Shown: positions 738 through 22,230, counted from the first letter of the stretch. The stretch: 64,000 nucleotides of DNA from an uncultured Acidobacteriota bacterium (GCA_963741955.1 CAVUKB010000004.1:192001-256000), one strand, 5' to 3'. Notes: generated by a model not told the origin, from the letters alone. Made by a program: numbers and translations.

Positions 738-777
738 GAGGTCGTCCTTCCGGGGTGGCTCGACGAACCGCTCCGGA

Positions 778-3009
778 TCAAAGCGGCTGATGATGATCGC
801 GCCAGGAGGCGTTCCGTCGTTCCCAGATCTCGGCGAGATCGCTCAGCAGCGACGCCGACCAGTCGTAGATGGTGTTCTTCTCGACGGATGCGCGCATTGC
901 CGTCATCCGTGCGGTGCGCTCGGCCGGTGACATGGTGAGCACGCGGTAGATGGCCTCGGCGACCTCGCTGGTGTCGTAGGGGTTGACGACCACGGCTCCT
1001 TCCAGTTCGGTCGCGGCACCGGTGAACTTGCTGAGGATGAGGGTGCCGTCGGAATCGGATCGCGACGCGACGAACTCCTTCGCCACGAGATTCATCCCGT
1101 CGTGGAGCGGCGTGACGAGTGCGACGTCGGCGGTGGCGTAAAGGGCGCGCACTTCCTGCGGTGTGAAGTGGCGGATCTGGAGCATGATCGGGATCCATCC
1201 GTCGCGACCGTATTTACGGTTGATGCGGGTGGCGGTCTCTTCGAGCTCGCTCTGAAGGTCGCGATAGCGCTTGATGTGGGTGCGGCTCGGGGCCGCGATC
1301 TGGGCGAGCACGAAGCGACCCACGAGATCGGGATGGCTGCTCAGGAGCGCGTCGACCGCTTCGACCTTCTCGATCAGTCCTTTGGTGTAGTCGGCGCGAT
1401 CGACGCCGACGGCGACGCGCATCTCGGGATCGATTCCGAGCTTCTGGCGGATCGCCGCTTTTGCGCCCTGGTCCACGGGAGGGTAGGGCCATTGAACGCT
1501 GATCGGGTACGGCTTGACGCGGGTGACGTGTCCCTGGAATTCGACGGTCATGGTCTCCAGAGCCACTTTGCATTCGAGGTAACGACTCACGGTGTTGAGG
1601 AAGTTGAGGCAGTGATAGCGGGTGTGGAACCCGATCACGTCCGCGCCGAGCATTCCGGTGAGGATCTCTTCCTTCCAGGGGCAGATGCCGAAAACTTCGT
1701 CGTTCGGCCACGGGATGTGCCAGAAGAGACTGATCACGCTTCCCGGTGCGAGTTCTCGCAACTCGGCCGGAAGGAGCGCGAAATGATAGTCCTGCACGAG
1801 CACCAGTCCGTGCTCGCGCGCTTCCTCTGCGGCGGCTTCGGCGAATTTCCGGTTCACGATCTGGTATTGCTCCCAGTCTTCGGTCCGGAACGTGGGACGC
1901 GCGTGCGCGATGTGGCAGAGCGGCCAGAGCCCCTCATTCGAGAAGCCGTAGTAGTAGCCTTCCTCTTCGCGCTGGGTGAGCCAGACGCGCCGGAGGACGT
2001 ATTCCGGCTGGTCGGGGGGGACGGCGAGGCGCCCCTTCGGATCGGCGACCTCGCGATCGGCGGAGCCACTTCCGTGACCGACCCAGATGCCTCCACACGC
2101 CCGGAGGAGCGGCTCGACTCCGGTCACCAGACCGCTGGCGGGACGGTCCAGCCGGATCCGCTCGCCGTCGCGGACGTGGATGTAGGGTTCGCGGTTTGCG
2201 ACGAGAACGAGCGGCGTCTCCGGCATCCGTTCGGCGACGAGATGGCGGAGCCGCTCCGGACCCGCGACGTGATCTTCGCCACGTTCGCTGCGGAGGCGTG
2301 CCACTGTTGCATTGAGATTATCGAGGATGCGACTCACGTCGGGAGGGAGATCCGTTTCTTCTCCGCGCGCCGCACGGCGGAAGAGGTCGAGCATCCGGCG
2401 CCCCTGTCGTACACGCATCGCCCGCGCTGCCTGATAGAGAGCGAAGGCGATGATGACGATGGCGAGGATTCCTCCGGCCAGCGCGATCCGGAGGAGTCCC
2501 TGCCGGCGCGACCAGATGAAGCCCTGGTCCTGAACCACCAGAACGCGGGCGTGGGGAATCTTCTGCAGCGGATAGACGGAGATCTGAACATCGTTGCCTG
2601 CGAGGTAGGCAGAGATCGGCTCTTTCGCTGCGAGGGCTCGTTTCACGAACGTGGAACGGCAGCCGAGGATGCTGGCGACGGCGCGATTGCCGAGGCTCCG
2701 GCGGTCGGGAAAACAGATCAGGACTCCGATCAGCCGGCTGTCAGCAGACATGTTCTCCAGACGCTCGACGAGGTCGGCGTCGGGTAAGGTTCCGATGTCC
2801 GGCTCGAGAGCGCGTACGACGAGCTCTGCCCGGCGCTCCAGATCCCGCTCGTGCCACGAGCGGACCGCCGAGTCGGCCCAGAGCACACCTCCGGTGAGAA
2901 TGGCGATGAAGACGACCATCGCCGCGATGGCGAAAATCTGGTCGTCGAACGGCCGGCGGGTGCCGGGTTTCTGAGGCATTGGTTCTGGTTCGGGTTGCAT
3001 CATCATCAT
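778..3009 (-). CDS. otsA: Trehalose-6-phosphate synthase (GT20) with N-terminal TM-periplasmic-TM extension
   Basis: [37 protein letters not shown] motifs. Start moved to the MMMMQ run (or 2979) because the ORF-track extension to 3285 is translated repeat. Confidence 0.9.
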
Positions 3010-3055
3010 GACGAATGGCTCGCGACCGAGCCGCGGCGTACGGTTCGGGCTGCTT

Positions 3056-3070
3056 GCGAGACTGAGGCCA
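3056..3070 (-). promoter_or_regulatory. Candidate sigma-54 promoter of otsAB
   Basis: Minus strand TGGCCTCAGTCTCGC: GG-N10-GC spacing, imperfect match, about 47 bp upstream of the start. Confidence 0.3.
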
Positions 3071-3110
3071 GGTCCCCTTTTACATATCATGGATCGTCTT
3101 TCGGTGCCGT

Positions 3111-3285
3111 GAGGGAGAGGGAGAGGGAGAGGCGAGAGGCGAGAGGCGAGAGGCGAGAGGCGAGAGGCGCGGGGGGAGAGGCGCGGGGTTCGAGGCTCGA
3201 GGCTCGAGGCTCGGAAAGCATACGGGAGCAGAGACAACGGGGAGCAGAGACAACGGGGAGCAGAGACAACGAGGTGCGGAGACAA
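3111..3285. repeat. Short tandem repeat cluster (GAGAGGC and TCGAGGC heptamers; 16-mer GGGAGCAGAGACAACG x3)
   Basis: Directly visible tandem repeats between the MocR stop and the otsA start. Confidence 0.9.
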
Positions 3286-4693: not shown

Positions 4694-5395
4694 ATGTCAA
4701 TGGCCTCCTACGACTCCACTCCACGGACCAGAGTCCGCCGCAAGCGGGAGCGCGGCACCCACGAGAGTGAAGTGATCCACTCCATCCTCGACCAGGCGAT
4801 GATCTGTCACGTCGGGTTCGTCGACGAAGGCACCCCGTTCGTCATCCCCACCATTCACGCCAGAGTGGGGGAGGTCGTTTACCTTCACGGCTCGCCCGGA
4901 AGCCGGATGCTGAGGATCGCCGGGTCGGGCCAGGAGATCTGCATCACCGCGACGCTGGTCGACGGCCTGGTGCTCGCGCGCTCGGCGATGCACCACTCGA
5001 TGAACTACCGCTCGGTGGTGGTTCTCGGCCGCGGTCGGGCAATCACCGGACGCGAGGAGAAGCTCGCCGCGATGCACGCGATCGTCGAGCACGTCGCGCC
5101 GGGTCGCTGGAACGAGAGTCGCGAGCCGTCCGAGAGCGAGCTCGCCGCGACCGCAGTGGTCGCGGTGGAGATCCGTGAAGCGTCGGCGAAGCGCCGGAGC
5201 GGTCCACCCGTGGATGCCGAGGCGGATTACGTCCTGCCACATTGGGCGGGAGTGATCCCGATGCAGATGATGATGGGCGAGCCTCTTCCGGATCCACGAC
5301 TCGAAGGCGAGCTGCCGCTCCCTCCGTCGGTCGAGGCGATGGTCGAGATGCAGGAACTCGGGGAATCTTCCGTTTCGGGACGCGACGGGGTATAA
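4694..5395 (+). CDS. Pyridoxamine 5'-phosphate oxidase-like / NimA-like FMN-binding protein
   Basis: CHVGF, PFVIP, YLHGS, DGLVLARS..HHSMNYRSVV; commonly divergent from MocR genes. Confidence 0.88.
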   Translation: MSMASYDSTPRTRVRRKRERGTHESEVIHSILDQAMICHVGFVDEGTPFVIPTIHARVGEVVYLHGSPGSRMLRIAGSGQEICITATLVDGLVLARSAMHHSMNYRSVVVLGRGRAITGREEKLAAMHAIVEHVAPGRWNESREPSESELAATAVVAVEIREASAKRRSGPPVDAEADYVLPHWAGVIPMQMMMGEPLPDPRLEGELPLPPSVEAMVEMQELGESSVSGRDGV

Positions 5396-5409
5396 ATCTC
5401 CCACCCCAC

Positions 5410-7260
5410 GTGAACGCCACGGAAGAGCTGATCGCGCCGAACGCCCGCCGCGCTCCCCGCGCCCTCCGCCGCGCCATTCTTTGCGCGATACCCATCGTAA
5501 CGGTGCTCGCGGTGATGTTCGCGATCCGGATTCCGCTTCTCACCGCGGCGGGTGTGGTGCGCGGGTGGAGCAGCGACTCCGCCATCATCGCGATGATGGG
5601 GAAGAAGATCTACGAAGGACGCGGGTTCGACATCTTTTTCTGGGGTCAGAATTATCTCGGTCCGCTCAGTGCGCTCTACACTGCGGCGGCCGCGGTTCTG
5701 GTTAGGATTCTTCATCCGTCGGAGAACATCTGGCCCCTCGCCTCGAGGATCGGAAGCATCGCCTGCTACGCCTCGGGCGTGGTCTTCTACTGGCTCGGCT
5801 TCCGCCATGTTTCGGAGCGCGCCGCGGTGATCGTGGCGATTTTCCTGGCGATCGGCCCTCCCTTCTACTTCCACGATTCGGTCATCTCGTACGGTCCGGA
5901 GATGGCGTTCCTCCTCGGCGGCCTCCTTTTCTGGATCGGAGCCGGCCAGCTGACCGCTTCTCCCGGCCGCGGTCCACTCGATTCTTCCGCGGGGCGTTTC
6001 GCATTCGGTCTCGTTGCGGGGCTCGGGTGGTGGATGAACCAGGGAGTGGTCTTCTCTCTCGCAGGGATCGTCTGGGTCCTGGTGATGCGAGCCTCCTGGT
6101 ATCCGGCGTTCCGGGCGAAATGGAAGATCGCCGACCGGCTGCTCGTCCATACCGAGCGGCTGGGGTGGGAGCCGCTCGCTTCTGCCGCCCGCTTTGCGCT
6201 GCTCGGAGTGGAGAGCCTCGCGCTCATTCAGATCGTGCTGTTCGTGATCGATGATCTCGCGCCTCTTCCGTTCAACCTCTTCTTCCTCTATTCACCGCTG
6301 CTGGAGCCACTCCTCGTGGTGGTCGTCCTTCAGTTCGTGCTGGCGGTTCGTGGAGGTGAGCTCCGGATCTCGCTTCACGGAGCGAAGCGAGGGTCGGAGG
6401 CCGCGGCCGGAGAGCTCCCGCGTCCGTCACAAATTCATCGCGGATTCCGTTTGATCGTCCCGGTCGCAATCGGTGCCGTGATCGGGTATGCACCGGTCTG
6501 GCTCGGCGGGATGCTCGGCTGGTACGAGCGCTCGTATTCGTTCTATATCGACATCAACTATCCCCGGGGACTCTTCGTCGAGACGATCCTCACTTTCACT
6601 CGCGCGCTACCCGAGCTGATCGGCGCCGGCGCGGCACCGCTGGGCGCACTCTGGGGCGCAGGAGTGGTCGTGCTTCTCGGGTGGAGCGGGTGGCGTAATC
6701 GACGGGAGGTCGTGGCGTTCATCTTTCAACAGCCGGCGCGCTGGGGCGTGACCGGTCTGGCAAGTGCGATCTTCACTGCGAACCTGGTCTTCTTCTGCAT
6801 CGGCCAGCGTCCGCTGGGGAAAATGCATTACCTGATCGCGGCTCTCCCCATGGCGTTCGGCGTGCTCTCGATCGAGATCGAAGCGGCGGCTCGTCTCGGA
6901 AAGCGACAGGAGTTCCTGATGTCCGTTCTCCTGCTCCTCGGAATCGGATCTCTCGCGCTCGGCGCCCGAACCGTGACGGGCTCGATTCTCTCGGAGCCGG
7001 ATCCGATGAGAGTGGTGAGATCGATCGAGCGCGAAGGATACCGGGTCTGTTACGCGGACTTCTGGGTTGCGTACAAAGCGGAGTTCCTCTCCGGAGGTCG
7101 AATCCGGTTCATTCCCTACCTTTCGCAGGACAGGACGCGCCGCGAGAGCGCGGCACTCGAGGCGTTGCCGGTGCCGAAGTGCATCGTGCGCTCCGATGGG
7201 ACCGTTGCGAGGTTCACCGCCGCCGACGTGCCGACGTCAGTGGTGACACCGCGGCGTTGA
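5410..7260 (+). CDS. Multi-pass membrane protein, putative GT-C fold glycosyltransferase
   Basis: Many TM helices; first loop SSDSAIIAMM..IYEG..FFWGQNYLG; C-terminal soluble domain with ADFWVAY. Start (GTG) uncertain. Confidence 0.6.
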   Translation: MNATEELIAPNARRAPRALRRAILCAIPIVTVLAVMFAIRIPLLTAAGVVRGWSSDSAIIAMMGKKIYEGRGFDIFFWGQNYLGPLSALYTAAAAVLVRILHPSENIWPLASRIGSIACYASGVVFYWLGFRHVSERAAVIVAIFLAIGPPFYFHDSVISYGPEMAFLLGGLLFWIGAGQLTASPGRGPLDSSAGRFAFGLVAGLGWWMNQGVVFSLAGIVWVLVMRASWYPAFRAKWKIADRLLVHTERLGWEPLASAARFALLGVESLALIQIVLFVIDDLAPLPFNLFFLYSPLLEPLLVVVVLQFVLAVRGGELRISLHGAKRGSEAAAGELPRPSQIHRGFRLIVPVAIGAVIGYAPVWLGGMLGWYERSYSFYIDINYPRGLFVETILTFTRALPELIGAGAAPLGALWGAGVVVLLGWSGWRNRREVVAFIFQQPARWGVTGLASAIFTANLVFFCIGQRPLGKMHYLIAALPMAFGVLSIEIEAAARLGKRQEFLMSVLLLLGIGSLALGARTVTGSILSEPDPMRVVRSIEREGYRVCYADFWVAYKAEFLSGGRIRFIPYLSQDRTRRESAALEALPVPKCIVRSDGTVARFTAADVPTSVVTPRR

Positions 7261-8000: not shown

Positions 8001-8048
8001 CCCAGGGCTCACGCCCTGGGCTACAGATATATCGTCTGCTTCGCGGAC
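8001..8048. repeat. REP-like palindrome CCCAGGGC-TCAC-GCCCTGGG plus small GTCTGC-TTC-GCGGAC hairpin
   Basis: Perfect 8-bp inverted repeat just after a stop codon. Confidence 0.6.
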
Positions 8049-8099
8049 TTCGTCAGCCGCGCCTCGGCCGGCGCCCGCTCTCGATAGCCTCGATCCGGG

Positions 8100-9250
8100 G
8101 CGATGAAGAGGGAAGTTGTGGCTGGACGCGAAGCGTCGGTGCGTTCGGCTGCGCGCGTTCTATGGGGGTGCGGATCCTCCGATCCGCCGCGCGAATCGTG
8201 TTGCACGCGCTGAAGAGGGAAATTGTGGCTGGGCGCGAAGCGTCGGCGGTTGCATCGAACCGCTCCGCTTCTGCCGCAGGGATGGTCTCGATCCGATCTG
8301 AACGCGAGTGTGGCGTGCGGATCAGAGGATCCGCGCTCCCCTCGGTGCTCGGACACCTCCGCGCTCGCTCCCCACGGCGCTCGCTCCTCGGCGCGTTCCG
8401 CTGCGCGCGTTCTATGGGGGTGCGGATCCTCCGATCCGCCGCGCGAATCGTGTTGCACGCGCTGAAGAGGGAAGTTGTGGGTGGGCGCGAAGCGTCGGCG
8501 GTTCGAAGCGTCGGCGGTTGCATCGAACAGCTCCGCTTCTGCCACAGGGATGGTCTCGATCCGATCTGAACGCGAGTGTGGCATGCGGATCAGAGGATCC
8601 GCGCTCCCCTCGGCGCTCGCTCCCCACGGCGCTCGCTCCCCACGGCGCTCGCTCCCCACGGCGCGCGTTCTATGGGGGTGCGGATCCTCCGATCCGCCGC
8701 GCGAATCGTGTTGCACGCGCTGAAGAGGGAAGTTGTGGGTGGGCGCGAAGCGTCGGCGGTTCGAAGCGTCGGCGGTTGCATCGAACCGCTCCGCTTCTGC
8801 CGCAGGGATGGTCTCGATCCGATCTGAACGCGAGTGTGGCGTGCGGATCAGAGGATCCGCGCTCCCCACGGTGTTCGGACACCTCGGCGCTCGCTCCCCA
8901 GGGCGCGCGCTCCTCGGCGCGTTCGGCTGCGCGCGTTCTATGGGGGTGCGGATCCTCCGATCCGCCGCGCGAATCGTGTTGTTCGCGATGAAGAGGGAAA
9001 TTGTGGCTGGACGCGAAGCGTCGGTGGTTCGAAGCGTCGGCGGTTGCATCGAACCGCTCCGCTTCTGCCGCAGGGATGGTCTCGATCCGATCTGAACGCG
9101 AGTGTGGCGTGCGGATCAGAGGATCCGCGCTCCCCTCGGTGTTCGCACCCCACGGTGTTCGCACCTCGGCGCTCGCTCCCCTCGGCGCGTTCCGCTGCGC
9201 GCGTTCTATGGGGTGCGGATCCTCCGATCCGCCGCGCGAATCGTGTTGTA
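8100..9250. repeat. Tandem array of about 250-270 bp REPIN-like units (4 full plus partial)
   Basis: GGGGTGCGGATCCTCCGATCCGC at 8164, 8416, 8674, 8942 and about 9210; the first four are each followed by the inverted partner GCGGATCAGAGGATCCGCGCTCCC. Confidence 0.9.
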
Positions 9251-11358: not shown

Positions 11359-11910
11359 GTGAATAACCTGCAGGAGTCCGTGCTGCGTCTGTGGCCGGAG
11401 ATCGAGTGGATCAGTGAGTCCGATCTCCGGGAGAAAGTGCTGCGAACGTGGGTTCGCGCATTCGAGCTGAGCCCCCTCGAGCCGTCCGATCTCGAGCGGA
11501 TTCCCTTCACTCTTCTCGTGCCGGATTGCCCGGTGACGTTCATGGAGCACAAGAGGTGCGTGGTCCACATCGCACGCCGGGCCGCCGAGTCGATGCAGGA
11601 GTTCATGGGAAACAGCCTGCCGATCGACCTCGACGTGGTGATTGCGGGCGCGATTCTCGCCGATGTCGGGAAGGTGCTGGAGTACGAGATGAAGGACGGG
11701 AAATCACGGCAGAGCGAGCGCGGACGGCTCCTCCGTCACCCGTTCACCGGCGTGGCCGTCGCGATGGAGTGCGGGGTTCCCGACCGGGTCTGTCACATCA
11801 TCGCTGCGCATGCCGACGAAGGGAATCTTGTCAAGCGCTCGACGGAAGCGATCATCGTGCATCACGCCGACTTCATGAGTTATCTCCCGTTCAAGAACCT
11901 CGTTCACTGA
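11359..11910 (+). CDS. HD-superfamily (HDIG-like) protein with degenerate HD motif
   Basis: EH..V, GAILADVGK (AD in place of HD), RHPFTG, IIAAH, HHAD. Confidence 0.8.
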   Translation: MNNLQESVLRLWPEIEWISESDLREKVLRTWVRAFELSPLEPSDLERIPFTLLVPDCPVTFMEHKRCVVHIARRAAESMQEFMGNSLPIDLDVVIAGAILADVGKVLEYEMKDGKSRQSERGRLLRHPFTGVAVAMECGVPDRVCHIIAAHADEGNLVKRSTEAIIVHHADFMSYLPFKNLVH

Positions 11911-11923
11911 GAGGACCCAGGTC

Positions 11924-13315
11924 ATGTCAACCGTCATGGATCGAGTCACCGCAACGATGTCGCAGTGGGCCGCCGGGGTCGAATACGACGACCTTTCGCC
12001 CGAAGCAGTCCAGCAGGCGAAACGTTTCCTGTTCGATTCGCTCGGCTGTGCGATGGGAGGCTATCAGCAGCACGACGTGCGGATCATGCTCGAGGTGATC
12101 GAGGAGACTGCGGGCGCGGGACGCTCGACTCTCTTCGGCACCGGCCGGCGGATCGATGCGTCCTCCGCCGCGCTGGCGAACTCCCTGATGGTCCGGGTGA
12201 TGGACTACAACGACATCTACTGGCAGCAGGACCCGTCGCATCCTTCGGACCTGATCCCTGCCGCCGTGGCCTGTGCCGAGCGCTCGGGGGCGAACGGACG
12301 TGAGCTGCTGGTCGGCATCGCCATCGCCTACGAGATGGAGATGCGTCTGTGCGAAGCGGCGTTCCCCGGAATTCGAGAGCGCGGATGGCATCATGCGACG
12401 CTCACCGCCTTCGCGTCGCCCGTGGTCGCCGGCCGGATGCTTCGTCTCACACCTGCGCAGATCCAGCATGCGATCGGAATCTCCGGCAGCCGGCACGCGA
12501 CGCTCGGAGCCGTCACGGCGGGCAAGCTGACCATGATGAAGAACACCGTCGATCCGATGGCGACGCAGAGCGGGGTCTTCGCCGCGCTCCTCGCGGAGAA
12601 GGGTTACACCGGGCCGGAGCACGTGATCGACGGGAAGGAAGGATTGGCAGAAGTCTTCGGTCCCGAATGGAAGCTCGGCGTTCTCACCGAAGGTCTCGGC
12701 GCATCATGGCGGATCACCCGCTGCGGGATGAAGGCTTTCCCCACCGAGGCGCTGACGCACGCTCCGATCTCCGCGGTGCTGGACATCGTCCGGGATCATG
12801 ACCTGACCCCCGAAAAGGTGGTGAAGGTGGAGATCCGCTCGCTGGAGCGCGCTGCCGACATCCTCGCGGACCCTTCCAAGTACGAACCGCATTCGAAGGA
12901 GACCGCGGACCATTCGCTCCCGTACGTGATCGCGGCGGCGATCGTCGACCGGCAGGTGACCCCGCGCCAGTTCACGAACGAACGGATCGAAGATCCGCAG
13001 GTCCGGGCTCAGTTGAAGAAGGTGGTGGTGGTCGCCGATCCGGAGATCGAAGCGGTCTTCCCCGCGCTGCAGCGAGTCATCGTCCGGGTGACCACGAGCG
13101 ACGGATCGGTGATCGAGCGGCAGCTCGACTATCCGAAGGGTGATCCGCGTAATCCGCTCACCGATGCCGAGATCGAGGAGAAGTTCGACGCGCTGGCGGA
13201 CGGGGTCCTCTCTCCGATGCGATCGGCGGAGCTGAAGAGCGCGATCCGCAATCTCGAGAATCTCGGCTCGGTATGCGAGTTGACCGGAAATCTGGTTTCA
13301 GAACCGAGGGACTGA
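11924..13315 (+). CDS. prpD: MmgE/PrpD family (2-methylcitrate dehydratase-like)
   Basis: DSLGCA, MDYND, SHPSD, GWHHAT, ETADHSLPY, YPKGDPRNP. Confidence 0.88.
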   Translation: MSTVMDRVTATMSQWAAGVEYDDLSPEAVQQAKRFLFDSLGCAMGGYQQHDVRIMLEVIEETAGAGRSTLFGTGRRIDASSAALANSLMVRVMDYNDIYWQQDPSHPSDLIPAAVACAERSGANGRELLVGIAIAYEMEMRLCEAAFPGIRERGWHHATLTAFASPVVAGRMLRLTPAQIQHAIGISGSRHATLGAVTAGKLTMMKNTVDPMATQSGVFAALLAEKGYTGPEHVIDGKEGLAEVFGPEWKLGVLTEGLGASWRITRCGMKAFPTEALTHAPISAVLDIVRDHDLTPEKVVKVEIRSLERAADILADPSKYEPHSKETADHSLPYVIAAAIVDRQVTPRQFTNERIEDPQVRAQLKKVVVVADPEIEAVFPALQRVIVRVTTSDGSVIERQLDYPKGDPRNPLTDAEIEEKFDALADGVLSPMRSAELKSAIRNLENLGSVCELTGNLVSEPRD

Positions 13316-15261
13316 TGGGACAGACAGTCGTCGAAAAGATCGCGCAGTCGCATCTCGCCGAGGGGCCTGATCGTCCGCTTCGCGCGGGCGATTTCGTTTC
13401 CATCCGACCCCGTCACATCCTCACTCACGACAATACCGCCGCAGTGATGAAGAAGTTCAGGACCCTCGGCGTCGACCGGGTCCACGACCCGCGGCAGCCG
13501 GTCTTCGCTCTCGATCACGACATCCAGAACACCTCGGAGGAGAACCTCTCCAAGTACCGTGCGATCGAGACGTTCGCGCGCGAGCAGGGGATCGATTTCT
13601 ACCCGGCAGGCACCGGGATCGGACATCAGATCGTGATCGAGCGGGGCTACGCCGTCCCCGGCTCGTTCGTCGTCGCGTCCGACTCGCACTCGAACATGTA
13701 CGGCGCGCTCGGCGCAGTCGGGACTCCGGTGGTGAGGACCGACGCCGCGGCGGTGTGGGCGACCGGAAGCTTCTGGTGGCAGATACCGCGGACTGTGCAG
13801 GTGGTACTGGACGGAAAGCTCGCCGAAGGAGTGACCGGGAAGGACGTGATCATCGCCCTCTGCGGTCTGATCGGCGATGAGGTTCTGAACGCAGCGATCG
13901 AGTTCACCGGACAAGGCGTGCAGTCGCTGACCGTCGAGGAGCGTCTGACCATCGCCAACATGAGCACCGAATGGGGCGTTCTGGTGGCGTGGTTTCCGCC
14001 GAGCGGGATGACGTTTCAGTTTCTGCGGCGCCAGCACGAACGGCTGGTGGAGGAGCAGACACGGGTCGCCTTTGCCGAAGACGATCTGCGACGATGGGAG
14101 GCGGATCCGATCGCACCCGATCCGGACGCGGTGTACGCAGCGCGCCTGGAGCTCGATCTTTCGACGGTGGTCAGGACGGTCGCAGGGCCGGACACGGTTC
14201 AGCTCACGCATTCTCTCGCCACGATCGCTCCGAAGCGGGTGAAGATCGACAAGGCGTATCTCCTCTCCTGCGTCAACTCGCGCCTGGAGGACCTGACCGC
14301 AGCGGCAGAGGTGCTTCGCGGAAAGAAGATCGCTGCCGGAGTGAAGTTCTACGTGGCGGCAGCGAGCCGTCAGGTTCAGCAGGAGGCGGAACGGACCGGA
14401 GTCTGGAACGTTCTGGTGGAGTCGGGAGCGACGCTCCTCCCTCCGTCGTGCGGACCGTGCATCGGGCTGGGAACGGGACTCCTCGAAGCGGGAGAGGTCG
14501 GGATCTCGGCGACGAACCGTAACTTCAAGGGGCGGATGGGATCCCGCGATGCGGCCTGCTATCTCGCCAGTCCGGCGGTGGTCGCGGCATCGGCGCTGGA
14601 GGGAGTGATCACCGCGCCGGGGACCGGATCCGGTGAAACGCGAGTCCGCTTCACCGTGCTGGAGATGCCGGCCGCCGCGCCCGAACTGGTCGACATCGTG
14701 CCGGGCTTTCCCGCCGAGGTTCGCGGGCGGATGCTCTTTCTGCCGTCCGACAATCTGAACACCGACGGCATCTACGGGAAAGACTACACTTACCGTGACG
14801 ACGTCACGCGCGAAGAGATGGCGCGTGTGGTGATGCAGAACTACGACCCGGAGTTCGCGCTTCGGGCTGGAGAAGGTGACGTGATCGTTGCCGGAGCGAA
14901 CTTCGGCACCGGATCGAGCCGCGAGCAGGCGGTCACTGCGCTGCAGGCGCGGGGGATCCGGATGGTGATCGCCACGAGCTTCTCTCAGACCTACCTGCGC
15001 AACGCATTCAACAACGGCTTCCTCTGTGTCGAATGTCCCGAGCTGGTGGCGGCGGCAAAACGCGATCTAACCGGATCGGTGACCGGTGCGAAGACGGTGA
15101 TCTCCGGAGACGTACTGGACATCGACTTCAGAAGCGGGTCGATCCGGTGGAGGGGCCAGGTCTTTCATTTTCAGGCTCTCGGTTCGGTTCCGCAATCACT
15201 GGTCGCGGCGGGTGGGATCGAGAACCTGGTGCGCAGCCGTTTCGCGGCGGCTGCGGTTTGA
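13315..15261 (+). CDS. Single-chain homoaconitase/aconitase-family hydratase, fungal Lys4/LysF-like
   Basis: THDN, LDHDIQN, GIGHQ, ASDSHSNMYG, [4Fe-4S] ligands SCVNSR and SCGPCIG, fused swivel domain NFGTGSSREQA; TGATG coupling to prpD. Confidence 0.88.
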   Translation: MGQTVVEKIAQSHLAEGPDRPLRAGDFVSIRPRHILTHDNTAAVMKKFRTLGVDRVHDPRQPVFALDHDIQNTSEENLSKYRAIETFAREQGIDFYPAGTGIGHQIVIERGYAVPGSFVVASDSHSNMYGALGAVGTPVVRTDAAAVWATGSFWWQIPRTVQVVLDGKLAEGVTGKDVIIALCGLIGDEVLNAAIEFTGQGVQSLTVEERLTIANMSTEWGVLVAWFPPSGMTFQFLRRQHERLVEEQTRVAFAEDDLRRWEADPIAPDPDAVYAARLELDLSTVVRTVAGPDTVQLTHSLATIAPKRVKIDKAYLLSCVNSRLEDLTAAAEVLRGKKIAAGVKFYVAAASRQVQQEAERTGVWNVLVESGATLLPPSCGPCIGLGTGLLEAGEVGISATNRNFKGRMGSRDAACYLASPAVVAASALEGVITAPGTGSGETRVRFTVLEMPAAAPELVDIVPGFPAEVRGRMLFLPSDNLNTDGIYGKDYTYRDDVTREEMARVVMQNYDPEFALRAGEGDVIVAGANFGTGSSREQAVTALQARGIRMVIATSFSQTYLRNAFNNGFLCVECPELVAAAKRDLTGSVTGAKTVISGDVLDIDFRSGSIRWRGQVFHFQALGSVPQSLVAAGGIENLVRSRFAAAAV

Positions 15262-15383
15262 GGAAGTGCTGCCTCCGGAACCGGAGGGATGGCTGAAAGA
15301 AAGTCGCAGAGGAGTCGAGCGGCGACAAGGCATGACGACGGCTGGACCGCCAGCCGGATGCCGCGCTCCCGGAAGGAGAAGAG

Positions 15384-16592
15384 ATGGCGCGCTACGAAGT
15401 TGTGACGATGCCCGGAGACGGGATTGGGAAGGTGGTTCTGCCGGAAGCGATCCGGGTCCTGGAGAGCGTCGGATTCGACGCGAAGTACATTCACGGGGAC
15501 ATCGGATGGGATTTCTGGTGCTCCGAAGGAAACGCGCTTCCGGACCGCACCATCGCCCTCCTCGAAAAGTACAGGCTGGGACTGTTCGGCGCGATCACTT
15601 CGAAGCCGAAGAAGGAAGCTGATGCCGAGCTCGATCCGTCGCTGAAGGGGAAGGGATACGTCTACTACAGCCCGATCGTGACCATGCGGCAGCGCTTCAA
15701 CCTCGATCTCTGCGTGCGCCCCTGCCGTTCGTTTCCCGGCAATCCATTGAACTTCGTCCGCAAGTCTCCCACCGGGAAAGTGGAGGAGCCGAAGGTCGAT
15801 GCGGTGATCTTCCGGCAGAACACCGAAGGAAGCTACACCGGAGTGGAGTGGACGAATCCTCCCGCTCAGGTGCGTGATGCTCTCGCGACGCACGCGCGGT
15901 TCCGCGCATTCGACGCGGTCCCGGGTGAAGATCTCGCGGTCTCGACCCGGATCGTCACCCGCGGGGCAGTGCAGCGGATCATCCGCGCCGCGTTCGAGTA
16001 CGCGAAGAAGTTCGGCTACCGGTCCGTCACGGTTGCCGAAAAGCCGAACGTCCTTCGCGAGACCTCCGGGATGTTCGAAGAGGAAGCGAAGAAGATCAAG
16101 GCGGAGTTCCCCGGGGTCCAGCTCTGGTCGACGAACATCGACGCGCTGATGATGTGGTTGACGAAGAACCCGGAAGAGTACGGAGTGATCGTGGCGGAGA
16201 ACCTGTTCGGCGACATCATCTCCGATGCGTTCGCCGGCCTGGTCGGAGGGCTCGGTTTCGCCTGTTCCGGAAACGTCGGCGACGAGGTGGCGGTATTCGA
16301 GCCGACCCACGGCTCCGCGCCGAAGTACGAGAAGCTCGATCCTCCGATCGTCAACCCGATCGCGATGATTCTCTCTGCGGCCATGCTTCTCGATCACGTC
16401 GGAGAGACCGAGAAGGGCGACGCGGTGCGCGCAGCGGTGGCGGCCGTCGTCGCGGAGGGGAAAGTCCGCACCTACGACATGATGAGAATCGCCGGCGGTG
16501 CCGACGTCTTCTCGAAAGGCGCCGCGACGACCTCGCAGGTGACCGACGCGATCATCGCGAAGATCGGAAGCAACGTGATGTCGCCGGCGTGA
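15384..16592 (+). CDS. Isocitrate/homoisocitrate/isopropylmalate dehydrogenase family
   Basis: PGDGIG, SPIVTMRQ, FRQNTEGSY, KPNV, NLFGDIISD, EPTHGSAPKY. Confidence 0.9.
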   Translation: MARYEVVTMPGDGIGKVVLPEAIRVLESVGFDAKYIHGDIGWDFWCSEGNALPDRTIALLEKYRLGLFGAITSKPKKEADAELDPSLKGKGYVYYSPIVTMRQRFNLDLCVRPCRSFPGNPLNFVRKSPTGKVEEPKVDAVIFRQNTEGSYTGVEWTNPPAQVRDALATHARFRAFDAVPGEDLAVSTRIVTRGAVQRIIRAAFEYAKKFGYRSVTVAEKPNVLRETSGMFEEEAKKIKAEFPGVQLWSTNIDALMMWLTKNPEEYGVIVAENLFGDIISDAFAGLVGGLGFACSGNVGDEVAVFEPTHGSAPKYEKLDPPIVNPIAMILSAAMLLDHVGETEKGDAVRAAVAAVVAEGKVRTYDMMRIAGGADVFSKGAATTSQVTDAIIAKIGSNVMSPA

Positions 16593-16613
16593 GCCGCGCG
16601 ACGGGAGGACGAG

Positions 16614-17846
16614 ATGACGGAACCAGTCGCAGACGTCCGGTACGGTGAGGCCGGGCGCACCGGGGACGACATACGATCCGATCTGCTGGTGCGGATCGAG
16701 CCGCGAACCGGCGGGGGGATCGAGATCGAGCTGGCCTCGAAGGTCGGTGCCTACTACGGCGAAGCGATCCAGCGACAGTGCCGCGAAGTGCTGCGTGATC
16801 TCGGAGTCACCGATGCAGTCCTCCGCATCGACGACCGCGGTGCGCTGCCGTTCGTCATCGCGGCACGGGTGGAGGCGGCGGCGCGCCGCGCCCTCCTCTC
16901 GGACCTCCGCTCGCTTCCGGTTCGAATCGGCATCTCACCCCCTTCGAAGAGCGACCGGCTCCGGCGCTCGCGGCTCTATCTGCCGGGCAATGAGCCGAAG
17001 TACTTCGTCAGTGCTGCGTTGCACGGACCGGACGCCGTGATTCTCGACCTCGAGGATTCGGTCCACCCCAACGAAAAAGATGCGGCGCGAATCGTGGTGC
17101 GCAACGCCCTCCGGGCGGTCGACTTCGGAAGCTGCGAGCGGATGGTGCGCATCAACCCCTTCCCACTCGGGCTCGAGGATCTGGACGAAGTGATTCCGGA
17201 GATGCCCGACGTGATCCTGATCCCGAAGGTGGAGCGGGCGGACGAAGTGATCGAGATCGAAAGGCGGATCGACGAGATTCTCCTCGCCCGCGACCTCGAC
17301 CGGCCGATCTGGCTGATGCCGATCCTCGAATCGGCCCGAGGGATCGAGAACGCATACGAGATCGCCTCGGCGACCTCTCGCGTGGTGGCGCTCACCATCG
17401 GCCTCGAAGACTACACGGCGGACCTCGGCGTCCCGAAGACGAAAGAAGGTCGCGAGTCGGAGTACGCGCGGATGCGGCTGGTCAACGCAGCGCGGGCGGC
17501 CGGAATCCAGGCGATCGACTCGGTGTGGGGTGACGTCGGCGATACGGAAGGGCTGCGCGAATGGGCGCTTCGCTCGCGCGCTCTCGGTTTCACCGGAATG
17601 GGATGTGTGCATCCGCTGCAGGTGGAAGTGATCCACGAGGCGTTTGCACCGACTGCCGAAGAGATCGCGAAGGCAGAGAGAATCGTGAAGGCGTTCCGGG
17701 AGGCGCAGAGGAGGGGACTCGGAGTGGTGAGTCTCGGTTCGAAGATGATCGATCCACCGGTGGTGCTACGGGCGGTGAGACTGGTCGAGCAGGCCTCCGC
17801 GATGGGATTGATCTCCGAGCAGGCAGTGGAAGAGGGTCAGGTATGA
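16614..17846 (+). CDS. citE: Fused citrate lyase ACP (CitD) and citryl-CoA/ACP lyase (CitE)
   Basis: N-terminal ~95 aa CitD-like (IELASKV..YG, IDDRGALPFVIAARV); C-terminal RRSRLYLPG, LDLEDSV, ILES, GLEDY. Confidence 0.88.
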   Translation: MTEPVADVRYGEAGRTGDDIRSDLLVRIEPRTGGGIEIELASKVGAYYGEAIQRQCREVLRDLGVTDAVLRIDDRGALPFVIAARVEAAARRALLSDLRSLPVRIGISPPSKSDRLRRSRLYLPGNEPKYFVSAALHGPDAVILDLEDSVHPNEKDAARIVVRNALRAVDFGSCERMVRINPFPLGLEDLDEVIPEMPDVILIPKVERADEVIEIERRIDEILLARDLDRPIWLMPILESARGIENAYEIASATSRVVALTIGLEDYTADLGVPKTKEGRESEYARMRLVNAARAAGIQAIDSVWGDVGDTEGLREWALRSRALGFTGMGCVHPLQVEVIHEAFAPTAEEIAKAERIVKAFREAQRRGLGVVSLGSKMIDPPVVLRAVRLVEQASAMGLISEQAVEEGQV

Positions 17847-19411
17847 CGATCGAGAGTCTGGACGTCGAATTGGTGCGCAACGCCGCGGGACGGCAGGTTC
17901 CCGGAGTGGTGAACGGAAATGCGCAGGTGCCGTTCGAGGGCGTGGACGTTCACCGGCCATCGGGAAGGAAGGCCGCACCGCCGGTTCGCAGCGCGGCGGA
18001 CTATCTGCGGGATGGGGTGAAGCTCGTGCCCGATCTGGCGACGGCCCTCGCCGAATGCGGTCTGCGCGATGGAATGGTCATCTCGACGCATCATCATCTT
18101 CGGGACGGCGATCGGGTCGCCGTGGCGGCGCTCGAAGCAGCGGCGTCGCTCGGAGTGCGGGACCTGATGTGGTTTCCGAGTGCCTCGTTCCCCAGTCAGG
18201 CGAGCGTGATCGACCTGATGGAATCGGGAGTGGTCCACCACATCGAGGGGAGCATGAACGGGCCGCTCGGCGACTACTGCACGCAGGGAAGGATGCGCGG
18301 GCTGGGAGTGCTTCGCTCGCACGGCGGACGGTGGCAGGCGATCCAGGACGGCGAAGTGCACATCGACATCGCGGTGATCGCGGCGCCGAGTGCGGATCCG
18401 TTCGGTAACGCGAACGGATCTCACGGCCCGTCGGCCTGCGGATCGCTCGGGTTCGCGCTCGCCGATTCGACGTATGCGGACAAGGTGATCGTGGTGACGG
18501 ACAACCTGGTGCCGTTCCCCTGCATCCCCTGGCAGATCCAGGGCAACAATGTGGACAAAGTGGTGGTGGTCGACTCGATCGGAGATCCGGCGAAGATCGT
18601 CTCGGGGACGACCCAGATCACGCGTTCGCCCGACCGGCTGCGCATCGCGAAGCTGACTGCGTCCTTCATCCGCGAAGCCGGAATCATGAAGAACGGCTTC
18701 TCATTTCAGGCCGGGGCCGGCGGAATCTCACTCGCCTTCGTCAGCTATCTGCGCGAGATGATGAAGGACGCAGGGGTCAGGGCGCGATTCGTGCGCGGCG
18801 GTTCGACCAAGGTCCTGGTGGAGATGCTCGAGGAGGGATTGATGGACTACATCCTCGACGGGCAGACCTTCGATCTCGACGCGGTGCGATCGATCGCATC
18901 GAATCCGCGACACGTCGCGACCTCGCCCTTCACCTCCTACAACTTCCACGGGAAGGGAAACTTCGCCTCCATGATCGACGCGGTGGTCCTCGGCGCGACG
19001 GAGGTGGACACCTCGTTCAACGGGAACGTGGTGACGCATTCCGATGGACGGCTGCTGCACGGCATCGGCGGATGGCAGAATTGCCTGTACGCCGGCTGCA
19101 CGATTCTCGCGGTGCCGTCGTTCCGCGACCGGACTCCGGTGATCGTGGACGAGGTGACGACGCTGACCGGTCCCGGTGAGCTGATCGACGTGGTGGTGAC
19201 GGAGCGCGGAATCGCGATCAACCCCCGGCGGAAAGATCTGCTCGACGCGGTCGCGGGGTCAGGTCTCCCGATCCGGCCGATCGAGGCGCTGAAGGCGGAG
19301 ATCGAGAGCATCTGCGGAAGGCCGGAGAGGCCGAAGCGGACTGCCCGCCCGGCCGCGGTGGTGAAATGGGTGGACGGTACGGTACTGGATACGGTGTGGG
19401 AGCTGGAGTGA
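17843..19411 (+). CDS. citF: Citrate lyase alpha subunit / citrate CoA-transferase
   Basis: DGMVISTHHHLRDGD, RSHGGR, FQAGAGG, GATEVD..FNGNV, IDVVVTERGIAINP; ATGA overlap with citDE. Confidence 0.92.
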   Translation: MTIESLDVELVRNAAGRQVPGVVNGNAQVPFEGVDVHRPSGRKAAPPVRSAADYLRDGVKLVPDLATALAECGLRDGMVISTHHHLRDGDRVAVAALEAAASLGVRDLMWFPSASFPSQASVIDLMESGVVHHIEGSMNGPLGDYCTQGRMRGLGVLRSHGGRWQAIQDGEVHIDIAVIAAPSADPFGNANGSHGPSACGSLGFALADSTYADKVIVVTDNLVPFPCIPWQIQGNNVDKVVVVDSIGDPAKIVSGTTQITRSPDRLRIAKLTASFIREAGIMKNGFSFQAGAGGISLAFVSYLREMMKDAGVRARFVRGGSTKVLVEMLEEGLMDYILDGQTFDLDAVRSIASNPRHVATSPFTSYNFHGKGNFASMIDAVVLGATEVDTSFNGNVVTHSDGRLLHGIGGWQNCLYAGCTILAVPSFRDRTPVIVDEVTTLTGPGELIDVVVTERGIAINPRRKDLLDAVAGSGLPIRPIEALKAEIESICGRPERPKRTARPAAVVKWVDGTVLDTVWELE

Positions 19412-19594: not shown

Positions 19595-20134
19595 TCATCT
19601 TCTCTCTCGTAAGGCGTCCACCACCGCTTCGAAGCGCCCCTCGGCACAGAGCCCGCTCATGCCAGCCTCCTCCCAGACTCGGGTCGCGATCTGCGCCGGC
19701 GTCTCGACCGCGAGCGGCGGAGGCGTCGTCATTCGCTGACGGAGTGTCTCGAGAAGCTCCTCTTCCTCGCCGGGGGCGAAGGCGACCCGGCTCTCCATCT
19801 CGATCGCGTCCATGACTTCCGCGCGGGTGGCTGCGCGCGAGACGGGATAGATGTGGAGGTGGAGATGTGGCACCTGGAGGCCGAGCTTGAGGAGGATGGC
19901 GCGGTCGGCGCCGGTCACTGCGAGGAGCGCCTCCTCCACGCGTCTGAAGAAATGGACGAATTCGCCTGCCTGTTGCTCTGATAGAGAGGAGAGATTCTCG
20001 ACGTGCCTCTTCGCGACCACTACGGCGTGGCCACGGAGTGCGTGGTCGTCGCTGAGGAGGGCCAGGGCGACCGGGCTCTCGGCGAAGACCTCGGGGCGGT
20101 TGATGTCGTAGCCGCAGAAGTGACAGGCACTCAT
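19595..20134 (-). CDS. HIT family protein with short C-terminal extension
   Basis: CHFC zinc motif, histidine triad VPHLHLHIYP. Confidence 0.85.
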   Translation of the reverse strand: MSACHFCGYDINRPEVFAESPVALALLSDDHALRGHAVVVAKRHVENLSSLSEQQAGEFVHFFRRVEEALLAVTGADRAILLKLGLQVPHLHLHIYPVSRAATRAEVMDAIEMESRVAFAPGEEEELLETLRQRMTTPPPLAVETPAQIATRVWEEAGMSGLCAEGRFEAVVDALRERR

Positions 20135-20287
20135 TGATTCGGCTCCCGTGAACGGATCGTGAAAACGGTTGGGCCTCGCTTCGGGAGGCAGCTTCATTGT
20201 CGCACTGGCATGCGGAATGAAGAATATACGAATAGCCTTGCGGTGCGCGGCCGCACCCGGGGCGAGATCAAGATCCGTGAGGGAGCA

Positions 20288-21190
20288 ATGTCAGGCTGGT
20301 GGTTCGAAGAAAAGCAGGAACGTAATCCATATCCTCTGATCCTCGCGGCACTCGGCGTAGTGGGATTCACCGGGGGGGCAGAGTTTTTCCGGAGACTGTT
20401 TCGAAACTCGCAGCTGTTCTGTCCCGAGGCCGAGCCATTGATCTCCTGGGACCCGCGAGATTACGGATTCGATCCGGAGCGTGTGGAGGAAGTCCGGTTC
20501 CGCGCGGACGACGACACGCTGCTGACGGGGTGGTACTGTCGCGCCGCGGATCCGATCGGCTCGGGACTCTACTGTCATGGAAACACAGGGAACTTCACCA
20601 AGGACCTCGCCGCACTGCGGAGATTCGTCGACGACGGACTGAACGTCCTCGTCTTCGACTATCGCGGATTCGGGAGAAGCGAAGGACGTCCGACGATCCG
20701 GGGAGTGGTCCGGGACGCTCACGCGGCGGCGGAGCTTCATGAAAGGATCCGCCCGGCGCATCTCCCCTCGCTGCTGTACGGGTTCTCACTGGGAGGGGCG
20801 GTGGCGGCACAGATCGTCCGCGACCATCCATTCGACGCGCTGGTACTCCAGTCGACGTTCACGAACCTCCCCGAAATGACACGCACGATCTTTCCGAATC
20901 TCCCGCTCCACATCCTGGCGGGACACGACTTCGACACACTCTCCATCGTGGAGTCGCTGGAGATTCCGCTCCTGGTGATCCACGGAACTGCGGATGAGAT
21001 GATTCCCTGCTCGATGGGCGAGACGCTGCACGAGCGCTGTGCGACCGCGCGTCCGATCGAGATCATCGAGAACGGGATGCACAGCGACCTGTTCGACATT
21101 CAGGGAGACCGGATCGTCGACGTGATCCGGAATCTCGCTCTCGATCTGCGAAGTCAGAAGGCGGATGAAGCGCTCGGCGAGGCGAGCTGA
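20288..21190 (+). CDS. Alpha/beta hydrolase (ABHD13/17-like)
   Basis: HGNTG, DYRGFGRSEG, GFSLG nucleophile, HGTADE, C-terminal His. Confidence 0.88.
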   Translation: MSGWWFEEKQERNPYPLILAALGVVGFTGGAEFFRRLFRNSQLFCPEAEPLISWDPRDYGFDPERVEEVRFRADDDTLLTGWYCRAADPIGSGLYCHGNTGNFTKDLAALRRFVDDGLNVLVFDYRGFGRSEGRPTIRGVVRDAHAAAELHERIRPAHLPSLLYGFSLGGAVAAQIVRDHPFDALVLQSTFTNLPEMTRTIFPNLPLHILAGHDFDTLSIVESLEIPLLVIHGTADEMIPCSMGETLHERCATARPIEIIENGMHSDLFDIQGDRIVDVIRNLALDLRSQKADEALGEAS

Positions 21191-21294: not shown

Positions 21295-22230
21295 ATGAAA
21301 AGGCTCGCGCTCGGCGTCGCACTTCTCGCGATTGCTGCCGCTGCTCCCGCTGCGCACCGGCATCGAGCCGTGCGCCGGGTTCCGGCGGCGGTGTCGACTC
21401 CACCTCTGATCGCAGGATGCTCGCTCTATCCGCCGGACAACGAGTGGAACCGGGACATCTCTGCAGATCCGGTCGACCCTAATTCGTCCCGCTACATCGC
21501 GCACATGAACGGTGCAACGAAGTTCCTTCACCCCGACTTCGGAGCGAATCAGGAGTATGGGATTCCGTACAACGTCGTGCCGGCCTCGCAGGCTCTGGTG
21601 CCGATCAGTTTCGATTACGCCGACGAGAGCGATCCGGGACCGTATCCGATTCCGGACGACGTGAAGATCGAAGCGGGAAGTGACCGCCACATCCTCGTGC
21701 TGCAGAGCGGCTCGTGCATGCTTTACGAGGCGTGGGACTGCGGCCGCGCGGGTCCCGGATGGCACTGCGGTTCAGGGGCAGTCTTCGACCTCTCGTCGAA
21801 TCGCCTCCGCCCCGACGGATGGACGTCCGCGGATGCCGCGGGACTTCCGATCCTTCCGGGTCTGGTCCGCTACGACGAGATCGAGGCGGGCGAGATCCGT
21901 CACGCGCTCCGCTTCACCGTCCAGTCGACCCAACGTGCCTACGTTCACCCTGCGACGCATTTCGCGAGCAGCAACACCGACCCCGACGCCCCTCCGATGG
22001 GTCTTCGCGTCCGCCTCCGGAGCGATTACGATCTCTCGCGGTTTCACGGTGCGGCGAAGGTCATCCTGGTGGCGATGAAACGGTATGGAATGTTCCTCGC
22101 GGACAATGGTTCTGACTGGTTCGTCACCGGAGCGACCGATCCGCGGTGGAACGACGATGACCTCGAGCAGTTGAAGAGTGTTCCCGCGAGCGCGTTCGAG
22201 GTCGTAGAGCTCGGCCCCATCTTCCGCTGA
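21295..22230 (+). CDS. Secreted hypothetical protein
   Basis: Signal peptide followed by HRHRAVRR; conserved-looking core [29 protein letters not shown]. Confidence 0.8.

Follow-up and report, generated by a model that had tools for sequence, protein, structure and literature searches.

The described system closest to the locus reported here is the citrate lyase of Escherichia coli and Klebsiella pneumoniae, which consists of CitD, CitE, and CitF and is joined by CitC, CitG, and CitX. The locus itself is a cluster of six genes in a stretch of 64,000 nucleotides from an uncultured Acidobacteriota bacterium (GCA_963741955.1 CAVUKB010000004.1:192001-256000), and this entire stretch is called the window in the following. 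The cluster resembles citrate lyase in the alpha, beta, and gamma functions, in the D-E-F order, and in a carrier region that is recognizable by the pattern AG...S-D...RI.P. In contrast to citrate lyase, the acyl carrier is fused to the lyase, the CitE and CitF parts score below their equivalog cut-offs, and the genes are accompanied by those for a predicted hydratase, dehydratase, dehydrogenase, and HD-fold protein, whereas neither a citrate transporter nor an oxaloacetate decarboxylase belongs to the cluster.

The front half of the alpha-aminoadipate pathway of fungi and Thermus shares with the cluster a Lys4-type hydratase, an isomerization by two enzymes (according to passages of PMC3556520), and a beta-decarboxylating dehydrogenase. 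In place of the homocitrate synthase of that pathway, the cluster has a lyase/transferase pair; its candidate enzyme for the first half of the isomerization belongs to the MmgE/PrpD family and is not an aconitase; and its dehydrogenase is similar to NADP-dependent isocitrate dehydrogenase (IDH) and does not have Arg85 of the Thermus homoisocitrate dehydrogenase (HICDH). Moreover, cluster-bearing genomes have the diaminopimelate (DAP) route, and no LysW- or saccharopine-type second half of the pathway is found nearby.

The methylcitrate cycle (PrpC, PrpD, AcnB, and PrpB) is comparable in that an MmgE/PrpD enzyme and an aconitase-family hydratase together isomerize a substituted citrate (passages of PMC3556520). 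The MmgE/PrpD protein of the cluster, however, has 23% identity to E. coli PrpD and failed the PrpD equivalogs (109.8 versus 950, 87.5 versus 575, and 61.3 versus 458 bits), and PrpB and PrpC are not encoded in the window. In addition, 2-methylisocitrate is not a possible substrate for a dehydrogenase that requires a secondary alcohol. The 2-oxoacid elongation of methanogens (AksA, AksD/E, and AksF), in the role that we take these proteins to have, follows the same series of reactions on 2-oxoglutarate-derived acids, and the AksF2 and AksF models are the best NCBIfam matches of the dehydrogenase. Yet these scores reach about half of the cut-offs (257.2 of 540 and 255 of 500 bits), there is no AksA-type synthase, and the hydratase of the cluster is fused and Lys4-type. 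Finally, the citramalate lyase of glutamate-fermenting clostridia, which was compared by its description only, is presumably likewise a three-function, citrate-lyase-like complex that acts on a substituted malate; mesaconase and methylaspartate genes are not found in the cluster.

Each of the enzyme families is known, and their combination was not found described in the literature searched. As to the gene set or a homocitrate lyase, the search, which did not reach supplementary files, yielded a single remark on CitF and CitED of Ignavibacterium album, whose genome paper noticed the CitE-CitD fusion and read it as citrate lyase, perhaps of a reverse tricarboxylic acid (TCA) cycle (PMC3362086). 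The genes neighbouring CitF and CitED are not discussed in the relevant passages of that paper, which report several amino-acid pathways to be absent from I. album, with CitF and the CitE-CitD fusion retained (PMC3362086).

Conservation and layout of the six-gene unit

The six genes form one conserved unit, and their arrangement is conserved far beyond chance. With the CitDE fusion as the query and one genome per species, 80 loci were obtained, 68 of which extended at least 7.5 kb upstream and at least 1.8 kb downstream of the CitDE match and were counted for synteny. The full set of six genes was present in 64 of these 68 loci, where it spans 7.7-10.4 kb. The gene order of the window was found in 58 loci and the order IDH-HD-HACN-PrpD-CitDE-CitF (HACN being the hydratase) in 6, this second order occurring in Ignavibacteria and one 'Bacteroidetes' metagenome-assembled genome (MAG). 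No conserved neighbours beyond the six genes were found in related loci. The near-complete occurrence, in either of two gene orders and across several phyla, without any other constant neighbour, is the reason for which we regard the six genes as functionally linked. The preliminary description, which was made from the sequence of the window alone, had taken them for a candidate pathway, and the survey now places the same unit in different phyla. The exceptions among the 68 loci are L048, L063, L068, and L074; in L048, L068, and L074, a close homologue of the HD protein (302-349 bits) is encoded elsewhere in the genome.

Many uncultured Acidobacteriota from peat and soil carry the cluster, as do Ignavibacteria and members of other phyla. 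By record title, the Acidobacteriota with the cluster include Terriglobales, Korobacteraceae, Sulfotelmatobacter, and Polarisedimenticolaceae; others are Eisenbacteria, Binatia, Ignavibacteria/Melioribacter, and the isolate Rosettibacter primus. The Ignavibacteria clusters retain their gene order although toxin-antitoxin, restriction, and other mobile genes have been inserted into them. The inserts, seen in L068, L070, L074, L075, and L079, comprise DUF433/DUF5615 pairs, nucleotidyltransferase/HEPN pairs, 23S-rRNA-intervening-sequence proteins, a PD-(D/E)XK gene, and a Type ISP restriction enzyme. In Rosettibacter, the gene of a CstA-family transporter lies between the IDH-like and HD genes.

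The distribution is wide yet patchy. In an even sample of the phylum of the window, the homoaconitase model TIGR00139 was exceeded in 32 of 401 genomes (G150, G028, and G053 enter the denominator only), and among nine sampled genomes of the family of the window, the one genome with a match above the cut-off was that of the window itself. As none of the eight family relatives has a Lys4-type gene above the cut-off while many distant families of the phylum do, the gene may have been gained by transfer or lost repeatedly. When the hydratase and the MmgE/PrpD protein were used as queries in protein searches, each gave at least 8000 candidates, and the names listed for them are automatic only. The annotations given by public pipelines are homoaconitase, 2-methylcitrate dehydratase, and citrate lyase, and metabolic reconstructions can therefore mistake the cluster for lysine synthesis, propionate catabolism, or citrate fermentation.

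The layout given in the preliminary description, with six co-directional genes separated by short gaps or overlaps, agrees with the reading frame and family scans, which placed all six open reading frames (ORFs) on the plus strand with the expected domains (Table 1). The two overlaps that it had named were located in the sequence (TGATG, 13313-13317; ATGA, 17843-17846), and the remaining gaps measure 13, 122, and 21 nt. Its labels held for the homoaconitase, CitDE, and CitF domains, whereas 'PrpD' was too specific for a protein that reaches 61-110 bits on models with cut-offs of 458-950 bits, and 'dehydrogenase' can be made precise as a protein with the scaffold of an NADP-isocitrate dehydrogenase, as judged by the alignment with E. 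coli Icd. Family scans with Pfam and NCBIfam were run on 35 ORFs of the window (12 + 23), and, as the preliminary description had claimed, no citrate, methylcitrate, or homocitrate synthase, no prpB, no citC, citG, or citX, and no lysW, lysX, lysY, or lysZ was among them. A promoter and terminator scan gave signals no better than chance.

Table 1. Genes of the cluster in the window and their family matches
Gene product	Position	Strand	Family match
HD-fold protein, 183 aa, predicted GTG start	11359..11910	+	PF01966 36.8 bits, TIGR00277 HDIG 34.8 bits
MmgE/PrpD-family protein, 463 aa	11924..13315	+	PF03972 251.8 bits, PF19305 160.2 bits
Fused Lys4-type Fe-S hydro-lyase, 648 aa, ATG 13315	13315..15261	+	TIGR00139 702.8 bits
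NADP-type beta-decarboxylating dehydrogenase, Iso_dh family, 402 aa	15384..16592	+	PF00180 262.5 bits
CitD acyl-carrier domain fused to CitE-type C-C lyase, 410 aa	16614..17846	+	PF06857 70.1 bits, PF03328 178.8 bits
CitF-type acyl-ACP:carboxylate transferase (alpha subunit), 522 aa, ATG 17843	17843..19411	+	PF04223 435.4 bits

The enzymes and their relatives

The aconitase-family ORF contains both the large and the small domain (Pfam/NCBIfam). Its designation as a fungal-type homoaconitase in the preliminary description was borne out, as the protein clearly passes the cut-off of the TIGR00139 equivalog (529.9 bits), with the next fused model at 371 bits. We compared it with P0250, a 797-aa representative from a library clustered at 50% identity, which matches TIGR00139 end to end with 1357 bits and is taken to be a fungal-type Lys4. 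Over the full length, the hydratase shares 46% identity with this seed-like protein, and the small-domain loop NTDGIY..YTY is present in both. Three cysteines, namely, that of the SCVNSR motif and the two of CGPCIG, are found in 68 of 68 homologues; from what is known of the aconitase family, we take them to be the ligands of a 4Fe-4S cluster. The large domain by itself is nearly equally close to the solved large subunits of homoaconitase (230 bits) and isopropylmalate/citramalate isomerase (220 bits). According to passages of PMC3556520, the homoaconitases of fungi and Thermus catalyze only the half-reaction between homoaconitate and homoisocitrate, and an aconitase carries out the first half. 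A pathway with a Lys4-type enzyme therefore needs a second isomerization enzyme.

The MmgE/PrpD-family protein is the proposed candidate for this first half, in which it would dehydrate a 2-alkylmalate-type acid to the cis-alkene. Both Pfam domains of the family are far above their cut-off of 32.1 bits. In the PDB, the best matches are IDS-epimerase (5.6e-44), Bacillus subtilis IRG1 (4.2e-36), and cis-aconitate decarboxylase (CAD, ~1e-28), with weaker matches to 2-methylcitrate dehydratases (7.7e-15 to 4.1e-12). As passages of PMC6789909 describe, the catalytic residues are common to CAD, IDS-epimerase, and methylcitrate dehydratase, and enzymes of the family act on comparable tricarboxylates.

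A variant cluster in one genome, G407, bears on this assignment. At one contig end (L086, G407:C16, 7013-13548), the IDH-like gene (77% identical) comes first, followed by a CBS/cysteine-synthase-like pyridoxal-phosphate (PLP) gene, the HD homologue (41%), an aconitase-family gene of the fused type, and the gene of a HacA-type large subunit. The other contig end (L069, 164-3800) carries a LeuD-type small subunit and then CitDE and CitF. Assuming that the two contig ends are joined, this variant cluster has no MmgE/PrpD gene and contains two enzymes of the aconitase family (one of them fused, the other split into subunits) in place of the MmgE/PrpD and Lys4-type pair, which mirrors the fungal solution with aconitase plus homoaconitase. 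Such a replacement would be expected if the MmgE/PrpD protein were the first-half dehydratase, and it is the best clue to the role of this protein. The split of the isomerization over two enzymes, which the preliminary description had suggested, agrees with this variant as well as with the half-reaction of Lys4-type enzymes (PMC3556520, in part).

In a Methylomirabilis MAG (G406), CitDE and CitF stand alone beside DctP (TRAP-transporter) and TetR genes (L063, 7659-12895), and there is no orthologue of the IDH-like gene, the best match being 40% identical. A distant HD homologue (34%) ends a DctP-DctQ-DctM operon of the same genome (L085, G406:C129, 9406-12946).

The lyase appears to be distinct from classical citrate lyase. 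The CitD domain exceeds the cut-off of TIGR01608 (67.1 versus 63.5 bits), but the CitE domain remains below that of TIGR01588 (271.1 versus 443.4 bits) and CitF is about 17 bits short of that of TIGR01584 (484.2 versus 501.45 bits). Identities to the E. coli proteins are 35% (CitD), 37% (CitE), and 38% (CitF), and the best PDB matches of CitF are 2hj0 (6e-109) and 1xr4 (1e-103). In line with the distinction from citrate lyase, CitG (PF01874) and CitX (PF03802) were found in none of six cluster-bearing genomes, including that of the window, with control genomes positive for both families, and the sole match to the CitC family (PF08218) in the genome of the window is partial (22.9 bits) and not credible. 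The preliminary description had considered that CitC, CitG, and CitX might be encoded elsewhere and that the enzymes would then simply ferment citrate; the search for helper genes in the cluster-bearing genomes was negative.

The carrier region reads A-G, eight residues, S-D, and an R-I-x-P strand, which compares with A-G, four residues, S-G-D, and the same strand in E. coli. The candidate for the modified residue is Ser22 (codon 16677-16679). Both this serine and Asp23 are found without exception in the 78 homologous sequences, so that Ser22 is likely to be modified.

For the dehydrogenase, the score on TIGR00183 (180.4 versus 567.3 bits) is likewise far below the cut-off, and the protein does not qualify as an equivalog of isocitrate, homoisocitrate, or isopropylmalate dehydrogenase. 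With E. coli Icd it shares 31% identity, the clasp-type insertion, and the C-terminus. Residues S113, R119, K344, Y345, V351, Y391, and R395 of Icd are kept, and N115 is exchanged for Ile98. Among the homologues, I98 and V99 are each present in 69 of 70, K344, Y345, and Y391 in 70 of 70, whereas R395 is conserved in 62 and replaced by K in the other 8. We take K344, Y345, V351, Y391, and R395 to be the residues that determine NADP specificity, and their retention points to an NADP-type dehydrogenase. Asn115 of Icd presumably binds the gamma-carboxylate. As it is replaced by Ile in 69 of 70 homologues, isocitrate is unlikely to be the substrate; homoisocitrate or an alkylmalate is possible. The best PDB relative is the Thermus HICDH (2.8e-53), whose R85 aligns to Val99; this arginine is presumably dispensable for homoisocitrate.

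The HD dyad of the HD-fold protein is degenerate (Ala101-Asp102). Of 67 sequences, 62 have Ala and 5 have Ile at position 101, whereas Asp102 is invariant (67/67), as are several other His and Asp residues. In a relaxed Pfam scan, which gave no further family, PF01966 was reached at E<=1 by only 8 of 19 aligned members. With alignment A1, AlphaFold2 gave a model with a predicted local distance difference test (pLDDT) value of 89.3, compared to 49.7 for the single-sequence fold. The best Foldseek match of this model in the PDB was YhaM (E 9.7e-5), the remainder being generic HD folds; by sequence, the PDB returned only YedJ (E 0.046) and the protein atlas only HD-named clusters. The protein is 50-78% identical across related loci, conserved as the enzymes are, and is kept in the G407 variant. 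Because CitC, CitG, and CitX are missing, our guess is that it might serve the prosthetic group of the carrier or its loading. E. coli acyl carrier protein phosphodiesterase belongs to the HD superfamily, which prompted this guess.

A possible homocitrate route and its alternatives

Our tentative reading, to which we would give somewhat less than an even chance, is that the operon encodes a thioester-conserving route of carrier-tethered lyase, dehydratase, hydratase, and dehydrogenase in the homocitrate series. CitF would pass the thioester of the carrier from acetate to the tricarboxylate or back, and the CitE domain would interconvert acetyl-S-carrier plus 2-oxoglutarate with homocitryl-S-carrier, the fused CitD domain being the carrier. 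The MmgE/PrpD-family protein would dehydrate homocitrate to cis-homoaconitate, the Lys4-type Fe-S enzyme would hydrate this to homoisocitrate, and the NADP-type Iso_dh enzyme would convert homoisocitrate to 2-oxoadipate and CO2. All these steps are assigned from enzyme family. The net reaction would be acetate + 2-oxoglutarate + NADP+ <-> 2-oxoadipate + CO2 + NADPH, with neither ATP nor CoA spent, and the HD-fold protein would be an integral sixth part of the operon. The homocitrate series is suggested by the hydratase, which passes the homoaconitase equivalog and resembles P0250 including its loop. A complete route of this type had already been outlined in the preliminary description; the conserved unit, the lack of citC, citG, and citX, and the split isomerization stood up to the analysis, while the notion of a TCA branch and the PrpD label did not.

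The rest of the genomes is informative in this respect. The genome of the window is 99.1% complete and contains, on other contigs, two citrate synthases, an aconitase of AcnA size, LeuC, and three further Iso_dh genes. As the canonical genes are thus located elsewhere, the cluster is not a stand-in for the TCA cycle, and a replacement of the TCA cycle was ruled out. The exchange of Asn115 for Ile likewise speaks against the alternative TCA branch. Lysine biosynthesis, another candidate, was also rejected: dapA and lysA exceed their cut-offs in four of five cluster-bearing genomes, the exception being Rosettibacter, and homocitrate synthase of the fungal/archaeal type (TIGR02146) does so in none of the five. 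These DAP genes and the missing synthase argue that the cluster is not part of an ordinary alpha-aminoadipate pathway, and a role in lysine biosynthesis is unlikely. With this model, no other source of homocitrate was found in the five genomes, which counts in favour of the homocitrate reading. In Rosettibacter primus (G003), neither dapA nor lysA had any match, and three HMGL-type synthase genes are present, one of which reaches 346.7 bits on the homocitrate synthase model (cut-off 413.55); this organism is possibly a lysine auxotroph or uses another route.

Cleavage of the citrate-lyase type has a standard free energy near zero and is favoured at millimolar levels. In the proposed route, cleavage would be coupled to oxidative decarboxylation with two substrates and two products, so that the overall reaction is probably near equilibrium, by our own rough estimate from free energies. 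The direction would therefore follow the levels of acetate, CO2, and NADPH. We lean, though not on strong points, towards cleavage and thus a chain-shortening, catabolic function in vivo. To our knowledge, the known ATP-independent lyases of the citrate-lyase type work in cleavage. Moreover, I. album retains CitF and CitE-CitD (passages of PMC3362086), and Rosettibacter keeps the whole cluster without dapA and lysA.

Several observations weigh against the homocitrate reading. The dehydrogenase misses the homoisocitrate dehydrogenase equivalog (257 versus 540 bits), it has Val where the Thermus HICDH has Arg85, and the hydrophobic pair at positions 115/116 would also suit an alkyl side chain. 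By PDB matches, IDS-epimerase and IRG1 are closer to the MmgE/PrpD protein than known dehydratases are, and with catalytic residues common to three activities, the sequence of this protein cannot name the chemistry. In an ungapped alignment, Ser22 is one residue off E. coli Ser14 (S-D versus S-G-D), which we take to be the number of the prosthetic-group serine. TIGR00139 was presumably built from fungal sequences, and P0250 is a putative fungal-type Lys4, identified by its model score. Furthermore, with DAP-route lysine in cluster-bearing genomes, there is no evident use or source of 2-oxoadipate.

It is doubtful that all parts of the wider picture hold jointly, namely, a carrier-bound 'homocitrate lyase' route that reversibly lengthens and shortens 2-oxoacids by one acetate without ATP or CoA, a carrier loaded without CitC, CitG, and CitX, the HD protein as a new helper, a frequent occurrence in bacteria of soil and sediment, and possibly the bacterial stock of the fungal Lys4. 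If the homocitrate route is true, the cluster would provide an ATP-free link among acetate, 2-oxoglutarate, and 2-oxoadipate and a third way of splitting an aconitase-type isomerization, and it would raise the question of how a CitD-type carrier becomes functional without the known machinery. Cultured organisms with the cluster, such as Rosettibacter primus, make the scheme testable.

It is unlikely, with about one chance in several, that the same four steps operate on citramalate or another alkylmalate. In that case, the lyase complex would resemble citramalate lyase and interconvert pyruvate plus acetate with citramalate, and the series would continue through citraconate and 3-methylmalate to 2-oxobutyrate and CO2, or run with a longer alkyl homologue. 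Ile98 and Val99, at the positions of Icd Asn115/Val116 and HICDH Arg85, would form a hydrophobic pocket like that which we assume for isopropylmalate dehydrogenase. Among solved structures, the mitochondrial CLYBL (5.5e-46), which we take to be a citramalyl-CoA lyase, is closest to the CitE domain, followed by malyl- and methylmalyl-CoA lyases. CstA-family proteins are pyruvate transporters, and the transporter gene inside the Rosettibacter cluster hints at pyruvate, another point that counts against homocitrate. The nearly equal scores of the large hydratase domain are also in agreement with such a series. On the other hand, the full-length hydratase is Lys4-type (702.8 versus 371 bits) and has the loop of P0250, and isoleucine synthesis is an improbable purpose in I. 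album, where several amino-acid pathways are reported absent (passages of PMC3362086).

We consider a citrate-series module improbable. Here, 2-oxoglutarate plus CO2 and oxaloacetate plus acetate would be interconverted by a citrate lyase that needs no ATP, an aconitase made up of two enzymes, and a paralogue of NADP-IDH, either like the reductive TCA cycle or as an acetate-saving oxidative bypass. Such a role was proposed in the I. album genome paper (passages of PMC3362086), E. coli PrpD also hydrates cis-aconitate (passages of PMC6789909), CitD lies above and CitF 17 bits below its cut-off with 35-38% identity of the three parts to E. coli CitD/E/F, and S113, R119, and the complete set of Icd NADP residues are retained in the dehydrogenase. 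These points are opposed by the Asn115 exchange in 69 of 70 homologues and by the citrate synthases, aconitase, and Iso_dh genes that the genome of the window already has. Citrate is prochiral, and a split isomerase would not be needed for it. In addition, the hydratase is Lys4-type, and the fungal enzymes of this type interconvert only homoaconitate and homoisocitrate (PMC3556520, in part).

That the MmgE/PrpD protein is an IRG1/CAD-like decarboxylase or an epimerase/isomerase is quite improbable. With such an enzyme, an itaconate-like or other unsaturated acid would be made or used, or a trans-alkene would be isomerized as in the AcnD/PrpF logic. The similarity to IDS-epimerase (5.6e-44) and IRG1/CAD (4e-36 to 8e-27) is indeed greater than that to methylcitrate dehydratases (~1e-12 to 1e-15), but this similarity is not decisive with catalytic residues common to all three activities (passages of PMC6789909). 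An itaconyl-CoA hydratase or other itaconate gene was not found in the cluster, and the aconitase-family hydro-lyase that takes the place of the protein in G407 argues for a role as (de)hydratase.

Finally, that the six genes merely lie side by side and share no pathway, as would be the case for a citrate lyase beside unrelated amino-acid-type enzymes, fits the solitary CitDE-CitF pair of G406 beside TRAP-transporter and TetR genes, but is hardly credible given 64 complete loci of 68, a synteny that survives rearrangement between phyla and the insertions in Ignavibacteria, and the overlapping start and stop codons in the window.

Neighbouring genes in the window

The window has a G+C content of ~64%, and its other genes, which include those for trehalose synthesis, alpha-2-macroglobulin, EttA, and efflux, among others, are unrelated to the cluster. 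Just downstream of CitF lies a HIT-family gene on the opposite strand (19595-20197, minus), whose 5' end shares ~39 nt with the beginning of an alpha/beta-hydrolase ORF (20159-21190, plus); neither of the two is kept with the cluster. The long ORFs at 5242-7260 (plus), 8021-9049 (minus), 21295-22230 (plus), and 56179-57813 (minus) have a high G+C content at third codon positions but matched no Pfam family with the thresholds applied. At the beginning of the window (3-3285, minus), a trehalose-phosphatase gene lies beside a GT20 gene of the trehalose-6-phosphate-synthase type, whose 835-aa product has a long N-terminal extension without a Pfam match. A bacterial alpha-2-macroglobulin of 1967 aa with MG2, bait-region, thioester (TED), and MG10 domains is encoded at 30685-36588 (minus).

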